Of a stretch of DNA of 24,532 nt, positions 12,469 to 14,555 are shown piece by piece. The stretch's first letter is position 1. Every line of letters begins with the position of its first letter. The stretch spans positions 1 through 24,532 of the forward strand of contig JBKKDE010000044.1 in assembly GCA_046708665.1 (NCBI GenBank), in the 5' to 3' direction. A program made the position numbers and the translations under genes. The notes under the pieces are model-generated. The model ran no database searches. It saw nothing but the letters and a program-made list of their open reading frames with translations, and had not been told where the DNA came from. The DNA is from Candidatus Zixiibacteriota bacterium. GTDB taxonomy: Bacteria; Zixibacteria; MSB-5A5; WJJR01.

Positions 12469-13017
12469 ATGCTGGGACACTGCGACTCCCACCCGAACCA
12501 ATTGTCGGCATTTGATTTGCCTGAGTGGGCCCGGGGACGTGCCCCAACGACTATGCGCTGCTATATCTGGGGAACCAACAATCACGAAGACCGCGCCTGC
12601 GAGGCGAGGGGAGTGGCCAGTTTCGCCATCCCCGGCTGGGGACTTCAGTTTCGAGCGGTGCAAGAAGGTAGTGCTTCGGCTTGCGAAGCCGCGGCTCTCA
12701 TCGGATTGCTTCGCTTCATAGAGAACAATCCCAAAGTCTTCGAGGGAGAACGTGTCGAAATTCTGACCGACGCTTCCCAACTTGTAGAACAGCTAACGGG
12801 CAAACTTCCGACCGATCCGCATCTGCGAAGTGTCTTCGCGATCATTCGTACCGTACGCGAAAAAGTTCGGTTCGAACTCGCCTGGGTCCCACCCGATCAA
12901 AACCGTGCAATCGAAGGTGTTCTTGATCTTCCCCCGCTCAAGACCAAGTTTCAGATCCAACACGCCCCCACGATCAAGAAACCCGCCGATCCCGCCCCGC
13001 GTCGGTTCAATTCCTAG
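12469..13017 (+). CDS. RNase H-like fold protein, probably catalytically degenerate
   Basis: CEAAALIGLL ~ AEY.ALI.GL; VEILTDASQLVEQLTG ~ V..DS.LV..Q..G; WVPPDQNRAIE ~ HVPR..N..AD. The first-strand DG motif reads YIWG. Start uncertain (12469 or 12553). Confidence 0.6.
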   Translation: MLGHCDSHPNQLSAFDLPEWARGRAPTTMRCYIWGTNNHEDRACEARGVASFAIPGWGLQFRAVQEGSASACEAAALIGLLRFIENNPKVFEGERVEILTDASQLVEQLTGKLPTDPHLRSVFAIIRTVREKVRFELAWVPPDQNRAIEGVLDLPPLKTKFQIQHAPTIKKPADPAPRRFNS

Positions 13018-13093: not shown

Positions 13094-13276
13094 ATGGCCT
13101 TCAAAGAACTTATTCTTGAGAAAGAAGCGTGCGCCGAGTGTGGCTTGTGCGTGGCTGTCTGCGGCTACGACGCATTGGTGTTACGTCCCACAGAGCTCGA
13201 AGTCATCCAAAGCGAGTGCGTGCTCTGCGATGCGTGCGTCATTGCTTGCCCTACGGAGGCGCTGTCCATCGAATAA
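13094..13276 (+). CDS. 2[4Fe-4S] ferredoxin
   Basis: Two CxxCxxCxxxC motifs: CAECGLCVAVC and CVLCDACVIACP. ATG 13094. Confidence 0.93.
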   Translation: MAFKELILEKEACAECGLCVAVCGYDALVLRPTELEVIQSECVLCDACVIACPTEALSIE

Positions 13277-13291
13277 CGGCGCCAAACTATC

Positions 13292-14497
13292 ATGACACAA
13301 TTTGATCGCTCATTCGACGTTGTGATCGTCGGTGCGGGCCCCGCTGGCGGATTGGCTGCGGTGACATCGGCCAGAGCGGGACTGCGCACGCTGCTGGTGG
13401 AGAAGCATCCCACCATCGGTGAGCCACTCTGCTGCGCCGAGGGTATTTCATTCTGCGGCCTCAACGACAATATCCCCGTAGATCCTAAATGGGTGTGTGC
13501 CGATATCGAGCGCTGTTACCTCGAGTCTCCGGGTGGCAACATTGTTCAGTTCGATCACCCCGACGCTGGGTACGTACTCTCGCGACGCCGTTTCGAGCAG
13601 GGGATGGCCGACATGGCTGCCGCACACGGCTGCGAAGTCGTGACAAGCACACAAGCGACCGGATTGGTCAATGGCGAACTCGACCGATTCAGCGGAATTC
13701 GACTTCTGGAGAACGGCCGCGAGTACACGGTTGGAAGTCAGGTAATAATTGCCGCCGATGGCGTCGAGTCCATGATTGCACGGTGGGCAGGGATCGACAC
13801 GCTTTTGCCCACCGACCATCTGGATTCTGCGGCGCAATTTCTCTTCGACAGTGTACCGGAGCTTGACCCGTCACGCATGGAATTCTACTTCGACACCGAG
13901 CTTGCGCCGGGCGGCTACGCCTGGGTATTTCCCAAGGGTAACAATCTCGCCAATGTTGGTATCGCGGTGGCACCAGTTGTGGCGGGGTCGAAGAAAGCGA
14001 TGCCGATGCTGCACGAGTTCATGAAGAAACGTTTCGGCAACTCGTCGCCGAAGCCGCTCAAGCGAACCGTAGGCGGAATTCCCGAATTTTGCGGGAGACG
14101 CTTCATGTTGCGAAAGAATGTAATGGTCACCGGCGACGCCGCGCGTTTGCTGGATTCGATCACAGGGGCAGGAATCGCGAATGCACTATGGTCAGGACGT
14201 CTCGCTGCCGAGGCCGCGAGCGAATTCATCAAAGATGGCTCACGCGATCAATCAATTTTGAAGCGGTACCCCGAGCGGTGGATGCAAGCGAGGGGCAGGG
14301 AGATGCGTTACTTTCTCTGGGCTCGTCAGATATTCCTGCGTATGAACAATCAGGATCTTGACGCTGCCATTGGGGCGTTGGCCGAATCCCACCACGGAAC
14401 GTCGATCACGGCTATCGACCCGATCGATGTCATCAAGAAAGCCCTGCGCAAGCGGCCGTCGTTACTGCGGCTTGCCCGCCACATTTCCTGGCGCTAA
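13292..14497 (+). CDS. Geranylgeranyl reductase family flavoprotein (DGGR-like)
   Basis: FAD motif IVGAGPAG, PLCCAEG (PxxC), GGYAWVFPKG (YxWxFP), GDAA and DSITGAGIANA. Confidence 0.9.
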   Translation: MTQFDRSFDVVIVGAGPAGGLAAVTSARAGLRTLLVEKHPTIGEPLCCAEGISFCGLNDNIPVDPKWVCADIERCYLESPGGNIVQFDHPDAGYVLSRRRFEQGMADMAAAHGCEVVTSTQATGLVNGELDRFSGIRLLENGREYTVGSQVIIAADGVESMIARWAGIDTLLPTDHLDSAAQFLFDSVPELDPSRMEFYFDTELAPGGYAWVFPKGNNLANVGIAVAPVVAGSKKAMPMLHEFMKKRFGNSSPKPLKRTVGGIPEFCGRRFMLRKNVMVTGDAARLLDSITGAGIANALWSGRLAAEAASEFIKDGSRDQSILKRYPERWMQARGREMRYFLWARQIFLRMNNQDLDAAIGALAESHHGTSITAIDPIDVIKKALRKRPSLLRLARHISWR

Positions 14498-14505
14498 CGG
14501 ACAAC

Positions 14506-14531
14506 AAAAAACCCCGGGGTTGTACCCGGGG
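14506..14531 (-). terminator. Intrinsic terminator for rpsT, between convergent genes
   Basis: CCCCGGG(14512-14518)/CCCGGGG(14525-14531) stem. The A6 at 14506-14511 is a U-tract on the minus strand. Confidence 0.7.
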
Positions 14532-14555
14532 CCGGATTGATCTATCAGTGTGACG

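Follow-up and report, generated by a model that had tools for sequence, protein, structure and literature searches.

It is known that the geranylgeranyl reductase (GGR) MA1484 of Methanosarcina acetivorans needs the ferredoxin MA1485, encoded at the same locus, in vivo for full reduction of archaeal lipids in Escherichia coli (Isobe et al. 2014, as described in the relevant passages of PMC7852524 and PMC10821996). A 2024 review deals with ferredoxin genes in archaeal GGR loci, and the GGR loci of Thermoplasma acidophilum and Archaeoglobus fulgidus also carry genes for 4Fe-4S proteins (PMC10821996). Among bacteria, the relevant passages of Coleman et al. 2019 (PMC6431249) report orthologues of geranylgeranylglyceryl phosphate synthase (GGGPS) and digeranylgeranylglyceryl phosphate synthase (DGGGPS) in all 12 surveyed phyla within the FCB (Fibrobacteres-Chlorobi-Bacteroidetes) group, Zixibacteria included, and those of Villanueva et al. 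2021 (PMC7852524) describe active enzymes from Cloacimonetes and note euryarchaeal-type GGRs in the same metagenome-assembled genomes (MAGs). Here we analyze a ferredoxin-GGR gene pair in a 24,532-nucleotide stretch of DNA (the window), which is contig C44 (JBKKDE010000044.1) of a Zixibacteria MAG, G000, that comprises 2.37 Mb in 421 contigs and is estimated to be 80.85% complete. The family membership, fold and motifs of the reductase, the conservation of the pair, the gene content of the lineage, the independence of the pair from menaquinone genes and its operon linkage in other bacteria are established by what follows; the donor role, the substrate and the actual production of the lipid we infer, and we consider that the pair most likely (with a probability of roughly 0.6) serves the ferredoxin-driven saturation of isoprenoid glycerol ether lipids. 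The concept has been published before for Cloacimonetes and for the FCB group at large, and the Zixibacteria pair is a further example of it, not a new kind of system.

Both genes lie on the forward strand. The first (13094..13276, ATG at 13094 and TAA at 13276) encodes a 60-residue ferredoxin, the presumed electron donor to the reductase, and the second (13292..14497, ATG at 13292 and TAA at 14497) encodes a 401-residue flavoprotein of the geranylgeranyl reductase family, of a kind that we call type A (Thermoplasma-like and ferredoxin-linked); the 15-nt spacer between stop and start codon (13277..13291) contains no evident Shine-Dalgarno-like sequence. A first-pass annotation of the window had described a 2[4Fe-4S] ferredoxin 15 bp upstream of a GGR with PxxC, YxWxFP and ITGAGIANA motifs, and these coordinates and all three motifs are read directly in the sequence. 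The ferredoxin has the two CxxCxxCxxxC motifs (nt 13130-13162, C13/16/19/23; nt 13217-13252, C42/45/48/52-P53), the length (~55-60 residues) and the Fer4 dicluster Pfam matches of a 2x[4Fe-4S] dicluster ferredoxin, and scores above the cut-offs of Fer4, Fer4_21, Fer4_9 and Fer4_7. In an alignment of 40 ferredoxin orthologues, the eight cysteines and P53 are invariant.

The reductase passes NCBIfam TIGR02032 (194.3 bits against a cut-off of 158.8) and Pfam PF22578, GGR_cat (68 against 27). An alignment of 39 orthologues revealed invariant residues in each of its motifs: G14, G16 and G19 of the FAD-binding GxGxxG (G14-G19; 13331..13348), P45 and C48 of PxxC (P45-L-C-C48; 13424..13435), Y209, W211 and F213 of the YxWxFP stretch that lines the substrate cavity (Y209-A-W-V-F-P214; 13916..13933), where P214 is nearly invariant, and G292, G294 and I295 of ITGAGIANA (I290-A298; 14159..14185); G281 and D282 are likewise invariant. 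PxxYxWxFP is the characteristic motif of the GGR catalytic cavity, and Cys47 of the Sulfolobus enzyme is essential for catalysis (PMC10821996). GxGxxG and YxWxFP align with their counterparts in 3oz2 and 3atq. The conserved cysteine in Ta0516 (3oz2) of T. acidophilum aligns with C48, and in the alignment to the S. acidocaldarius enzyme (3atq-family) it is shifted by one column and stands opposite C47. The earlier claim that these motifs typify archaeal digeranylgeranylglycerophospholipid (DGGGPL) reductases holds in part: the cysteine and YxWxFP occur throughout the GGR family, whereas ITGxGIANA is common to the window protein and the Thermoplasma enzyme (ITGGGIANA) and is missing from the Sulfolobus enzyme and from a second, type B, paralogue in the phylum.

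Comparisons of sequence and of predicted structure point to the same relative. The best match in the Protein Data Bank (PDB) by sequence is Ta0516 (E 5e-55, residues 7-390 against 4-388, ~30-32% identity), and the Sulfolobus GGR matches with only ~70 bits. With an AlphaFold2 model (pLDDT 92, pTM 0.91) as the query, the top Foldseek match is again 3oz2 (TM 0.88/0.89, rmsd 2.3 Å, 30% identity), and the S. acidocaldarius GGR reaches TM 0.85. The window protein thus resembles Ta0516 in full-length homology, fold, GxGxxG, catalytic cysteine, YxWxFP and ITGxGIANA. It differs in its bacterial host, and whereas the Thermoplasma enzyme has been reported to use NADP(H) (PMC10821996), here a ferredoxin is invariably encoded directly upstream. 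The arrangement of a GGR beside a small ferredoxin also recalls MA1484/MA1485, a likeness drawn from the description of that system; adjacency together with the literature suggests that the Zixibacteria enzyme would likewise depend on its ferredoxin.

Among the NCBIfam models, that of the Thermoplasmatales DGGGPL reductase (NF041160) ranks first with 197.6 bits. A second DGGGPL reductase model, NF041080, gives 121.8 bits against a cut-off of 580, and NF041385 gives 70.7 against 700. The BchP-ChlP model gives 121 against 343.3 and the other of the TIGR02023/TIGR02028 pair 68.5 against 505.3; MenJ (NF045655) gives 61.8 against 700, the lowest of the matched named GGR subfamily models (MenJ, ChlP/BchP and DGGGPL reductases). 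We judged the grouping relative to MenJ and ChlP by these profile scores, by the PDB matches and by an internal GGR tree of Zixibacteria and metagenome sequences in which the type B paralogue serves as outgroup. On all three counts (the scores, 3oz2 as best match, and a long, well-supported separate branch for type B) the protein does not cluster with MenJ/ChlP; such clustering is what the first-pass annotation had named as evidence against its proposal. In sequence, then, the window GGR is closest to the Thermoplasma lipid reductase and is not grouped with MenJ or ChlP/BchP. Mycobacterial MenJ and BchP/ChlP belong to the same TIGR02032 flavoprotein family; unlike them, the window protein has low scores on their profiles, G000 has no chlorophyll synthase among its three UbiA genes, and the pair occurs without menaquinone genes.

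We then compared the pair across a phylum sample of 121 genomes (genome labels begin with G), where a type A GGR orthologue was found in 57; 42 of those loci were inspected, with identities of 32-100%. In 42/42, GGR is directly preceded by a ferredoxin gene on the same strand, and many of these loci show an overlap of a few nt between the ferredoxin stop codon and the GGR start codon, which suggests that the two genes are co-translated as a unit. When metagenomes were scanned with the orthologue alignment, 80 further loci of 31-47% identity were returned (L109 and L169 among them), whose GGRs reach 350-580 bits with the type A profile and 87-110 with that of type B; 64 of the 80 have the ferredoxin directly upstream. 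Given 42/42 phylum loci and 64/80 metagenome loci, the pairing goes beyond chance. In the internal tree, 37 of 39 Zixibacteria GGRs form one clade (SH-aLRT 99), which makes the gene pair an old one in the phylum. The neighborhood is also stable: rpsT-murJ-comEC synteny is kept in most of the inspected phylum loci and in most sampled families, f14 and f17 excepted, and is seen in only 10 of the 80 metagenome loci. The pair has been lost in some families, the type A GGR being mostly gone from f5 (0/11) and f3 (4/45). The ferredoxin-GGR pairs of L095 (G092, family f17) and L098 (G117, family f14) lack rpsT-murJ synteny, and the tree places their GGRs apart from the main Zixibacteria clade and among those metagenome sequences that are linked to UbiA3 (an uncharacterised clade of UbiA prenyltransferases) and GGGPS; this synteny and tree position suggest a separate acquisition.

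Independent evidence on the pathway comes from gene order in the metagenome loci. L109 carries UbiA3, a DGGGPS-like UbiA gene (231 bits), ferredoxin, GGR and GGGPS in one operon. In L169, ferredoxin and GGR are found with an IdsA-type prenyl diphosphate synthase, a DGGGPS-like gene (248 bits), GGGPS (303 bits) and a B12-binding radical-SAM protein; GGR and GGGPS occur together in L121 and in L127 (TIGR01769, 180.6), and the contig of the latter also encodes DnaB and is therefore bacterial. UbiA3, ferredoxin and GGR stand in line on 7 further distinct contigs; a UbiA3-clade gene (100-190 bits) directly precedes ferredoxin-GGR in L131, L135/136/138, L140, L155 and L179 and precedes GGR alone in L150, and in L140 a PgsA-like CDP-alcohol transferase follows GGR. 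The GGR clades linked to GGGPS and UbiA are the nearest neighbors of the Zixibacteria clade, and together they form one well-supported group (SH-aLRT 97) apart from type B. Some metagenome loci also gave weak GGGPS matches (22-46 bits), which were set aside as non-specific TIM-barrel matches. The radical-SAM gene of L169 (L169:1-5454, contig JGI24025J20009_10007572) is TIGR04013-like (77 bits) and may be related to tetraether synthases.

The same operons bear on an alternative in which the pair reduces free geranylgeranyl diphosphate (GGPP), or a partly reduced form of it, to a phytyl-type diphosphate, and UbiA3 or a MenA-like UbiA attaches the product to an acceptor other than a glycerol ether. 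ChlP/BchP-type GGRs act on GGPP, and UbiA3, ferredoxin and GGR stand together with no GGGPS in view in L131, L135, L140, L155 and L179. Nor is UbiA3 a DGGGPS of the canonical kind: DGGGPS models give it only 35-40 bits, and the best PDB match of its profile, the Methanocaldococcus jannaschii DGGGPS (6m31), is weak (E 3e-12). Many of these contigs are short, however, and GGGPS may lie beyond their ends, while L109 unites UbiA3 and the DGGGPS-like gene with ferredoxin, GGR and GGGPS in a single operon. The position of UbiA3 beside cdsA and the PgsA-like gene after the GGR of L140 both point to a glycerophospholipid product, and on balance we regard reduction of the free diphosphate as unlikely.

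Saturation of ether lipids presupposes that the lineage can make them, and the first-pass annotation had proposed a search of the genome for the respective genes. GGGPS is present in 109/121 phylum genomes and a DGGGPS-like UbiA in 116/121 (118-230 bits), and UbiA3 accompanies them in 111/121. Searches of G000 for PcrB/GGGPS, CarS and glycerol-1-phosphate dehydrogenase (G1PDH) found none of the three, and its UbiA genes number three: CtaB, MenA (next to MenC) and UbiA3. In the same-genus genome G022 (99% complete), GGGPS lies between alaS and gmhA (TIGR01769, 173 against 161.55; NF003198, 249.6 against 247), and the alaS of G000 is cut off by the end of contig C126 (position 11), with no gmhA in this genome. 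The DGGGPS-like UbiA of G022 (PRK12884, 135.8; PRK12882, 123.3) is flanked by genes that in G000 likewise lie at contig ends (C158, position 11; C251, position 2). Because both syntenic sites are cut by contig ends, the absence of the two synthases from G000 is uninformative; both are present in four near-complete genomes of the same genus (G022, G027, G032 and G048). The three genomes that lack GGGPS, the DGGGPS-like gene and UbiA3 together (G063, G081 and G087) also lack GGR. This phyletic association is consistent with a common pathway and is statistically weak, since GGGPS and the UbiA genes occur almost throughout the phylum. G000 encodes a short-chain FPP/GGPP-type synthase, and a long-chain polyprenyl synthase is present too. 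Two candidates were rejected: the sole Fe-ADH_2 match above cut-off in G000 is AroB and not G1PDH, a second match, on contig C212, being sub-cut-off; and the internal stops suspected in DGGGPS-like genes of family f3, which would have meant recoding or pseudogenes, are natural stops at the end of the match.

UbiA3 itself lies on contig C218 of G000 (L003:1369-2280, reverse strand), beside cdsA (L003:2290-3099) and uppS (L003:3117-3677). The arrangement uppS-cdsA-UbiA3-nlpC is conserved, the order uppS-cdsA-UbiA3 being kept in the family of the window genome, and the database annotation of UbiA3 is generic only.

The first-pass annotation had offered as its mundane alternative a MenJ-like reduction of the menaquinone side chain, which GGR-family enzymes carry out in mycobacteria (NCBIfam NF045655). 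The genomic setting gives this some plausibility: the MenA gene of G000 stands next to MenC, the genus has MenD, MenB and MenA, and a long-chain polyprenyl synthase is at hand. The distribution of the genes speaks otherwise. Four genomes, G030, G121, G091 (a single contig) and G064, contain ferredoxin-GGR, GGGPS, UbiA3 and the DGGGPS-like gene, and in these neither MenD nor MenB was found above cut-off, nor any MqnA; in the control genome G022, MenD (425 bits), MenB (467 bits) and MenA were found. Conversely, MenA is above cut-off in 98/121 genomes, including 45/45 of f3 and 10/11 of f5, families in which the type A GGR is mostly missing. It is therefore unlikely that the pair has a conserved MenJ-like role, as it is present in genomes without a recognisable menaquinone pathway, with the caveat that a sub-cut-off MenA-like UbiA occurs there; together with the score of 61.8 against 700 on the MenJ model, this makes quinone reduction highly improbable in our estimate, the least probable of the readings considered. 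The MenA-like UbiA genes that the menaquinone-pathway-less lineages keep, such as L087:4267-5163 (G091) and L089:4191-5108 (G030), are far under the MenA cut-offs, and the one in G091 adjoins an HpnI-like glycosyltransferase; these lineages may have an uptake-based quinone synthesis.

A further point against a MenJ-like role of the pair is that the phylum has a paralogue with more resemblance to BchP/MenJ and no ferredoxin. This type B GGR is encoded in 23/45 genomes of f3 and in several of the family to which the window genome belongs, and was not found in G000 or G022. It scores 91-129 bits on BchP-ChlP, 62-100 on MenJ and only 45-63 on the Thermoplasmatales model, has degenerate motifs (GYGWIIP, FTGEGIGKA), and is 27% identical to the window GGR; examples are found in L071-L078 (e.g. 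L073:4628-5824 and L074:4778-6001). The only other GGR-like match in G000, on contig C329, reaches at best 78.9 bits on TIGR02032 against the cut-off of 158.8 and is a weak, sub-cut-off member of the GGR/FixC/monooxygenase superfamily.

Another possibility is that the pair saturates a different isoprenoid, either a polyprenol or dolichol-type carrier lipid or a hydrocarbon derived from squalene or phytoene. Reduction of polyprenols and other terpenoids has been suggested for archaeal GGR paralogues (PMC10821996). G000 (at C152:1353-2165) and 12/13 genomes of its family encode a member of the squalene/phytoene synthase family, and the pair lies near murJ throughout the phylum. Bacteria commonly have rpsT next to murJ whether or not they have GGR, however, and the oppositely oriented rpsT with its terminator parts murJ from the pair. 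In none of the 122 loci inspected did the pair cluster with SQS_PSY or uppS, and the operon partners elsewhere are GGGPS and UbiA enzymes, so that we hold a role in other isoprenoids to be very doubtful.

Our preferred reading, saturation of isoprenoid glycerol ether lipids, implies the following scheme. Ferredoxin and GGR would act as one unit, the dicluster ferredoxin giving low-potential electrons to the FAD of the reductase, which would then hydrogenate the C=C bonds of geranylgeranyl chains. The likeliest substrates would be ether lipids of the geranylgeranylglyceryl or digeranylgeranylglyceryl phosphate type, or their CDP-activated or head-group-bearing forms, presumably made by GGGPS, the DGGGPS-like UbiA and possibly UbiA3 (beside uppS-cdsA), and bacterial CdsA may replace the missing CarS in CDP activation. 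The archaeal-type ether-lipid saturation put forward by the first-pass annotation is thus supported by the Thermoplasma-like profile, PDB and fold matches, by the synthases of the lineage and by the independence from menaquinone, while the MenJ-like alternative raised beside it fares poorly. More tentatively, the ferredoxin-GGR module could belong to a lipid pathway with an extra, undescribed UbiA3 step, whose product would be a saturated isoprenoid ether lipid unlike archaeol (for example through further prenylation or a different acceptor), and could have been inherited vertically since the phylum ancestor; this more specific version is possible, though we would not lean on it.

Several observations weigh against saturation of ether lipids. 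The GGR is far under the archaeal equivalog cut-off (197.6 against 780) and passed no DGGGPL reductase equivalog model; these models were built on archaeal clades, and the protein, presumably alike in function, does not belong to those clades. All DGGGPS-like matches in the phylum are also under cut-off (at most 230 against 296). GGGPS and the DGGGPS-like gene are both unassembled in G000, where their presence is deduced from synteny at contig ends, and even five relatives of 99-100% completeness yielded neither G1PDH nor CarS. In Zixibacteria, lipid genes do not cluster with the pair, which has rpsT, murJ and comEC (also a Mgl cluster) as neighbors. GGGPS and UbiA genes occur without the type A GGR in about half of the sampled genomes, and saturation would therefore be at best optional. 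Finally, the internal tree covers Zixibacteria and metagenome sequences only, rather than named archaeal, MenJ or ChlP references.

As a set, the genes resemble the archaeal-like complement described for the FCB group (Ca. Cloacimonetes) in the relevant passages of PMC7852524 and PMC6431249, with GGGPS, a DGGGPS-like UbiA, polyprenyl synthases, a euryarchaeal-type GGR and no CarS or G1PDH. Unlike in that set, the Zixibacteria genes are dispersed and a UbiA3 clade accompanies the system; those passages do not describe a ferredoxin partner or its strict conservation. What our analysis adds is a phylum-wide picture of the pair, its separation from menaquinone genes and a recurrent link to the uncharacterised UbiA3 clade, and the pair with its operon-linked genes offers a defined set of four or five genes that could be reconstituted in a heterologous host. 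If the reading is correct, Zixibacteria would make saturated isoprenoid ether lipids beside fatty-acid lipids, so that a phylum widespread in sediment and groundwater would blur the 'lipid divide' and could be an unrecognised source of archaeol-like biomarkers.

The immediate surroundings of the pair define its limits. On the 3' side lie the convergent rpsT, then murJ and comEC, and the intrinsic terminator of rpsT (S20), on the reverse strand at 14510..14533, is the 3' boundary of the pair; it consists of a GC-rich hairpin with a 9-bp stem (7 GC pairs) followed by a T-rich tail, and folds with -24.3 kcal/mol (z -1.7). On the 5' side, the pair had been thought to have its own promoter. A scan of the forward strand upstream of 13094 for the sigma-70 consensus, which would miss FCB-type promoters, found none, and a same-strand open reading frame (ORF) ends 76 nt before the ferredoxin gene, so this suggestion was not borne out. 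That ORF (12469-13017, 182 residues) has a weak RNase HI-like match (21 bits); an ORF of homologous size precedes the pair in G022 and not in G007, and it therefore lies outside the conserved unit. With a GC content of 0.57-0.58, the pair matches its flanks and so shows no sign of recent transfer. The named homologues of the window proteins come from Candidatus Zixibacteria MAGs. The closest genome records, L011 and L012 (CAYJMP010000002.1 and CAYTTY010000012.1), bear the submitter label 'uncultured Ignavibacteria', yet protein homologues are labeled Zixibacteria, and the submitter taxonomy looks inconsistent.

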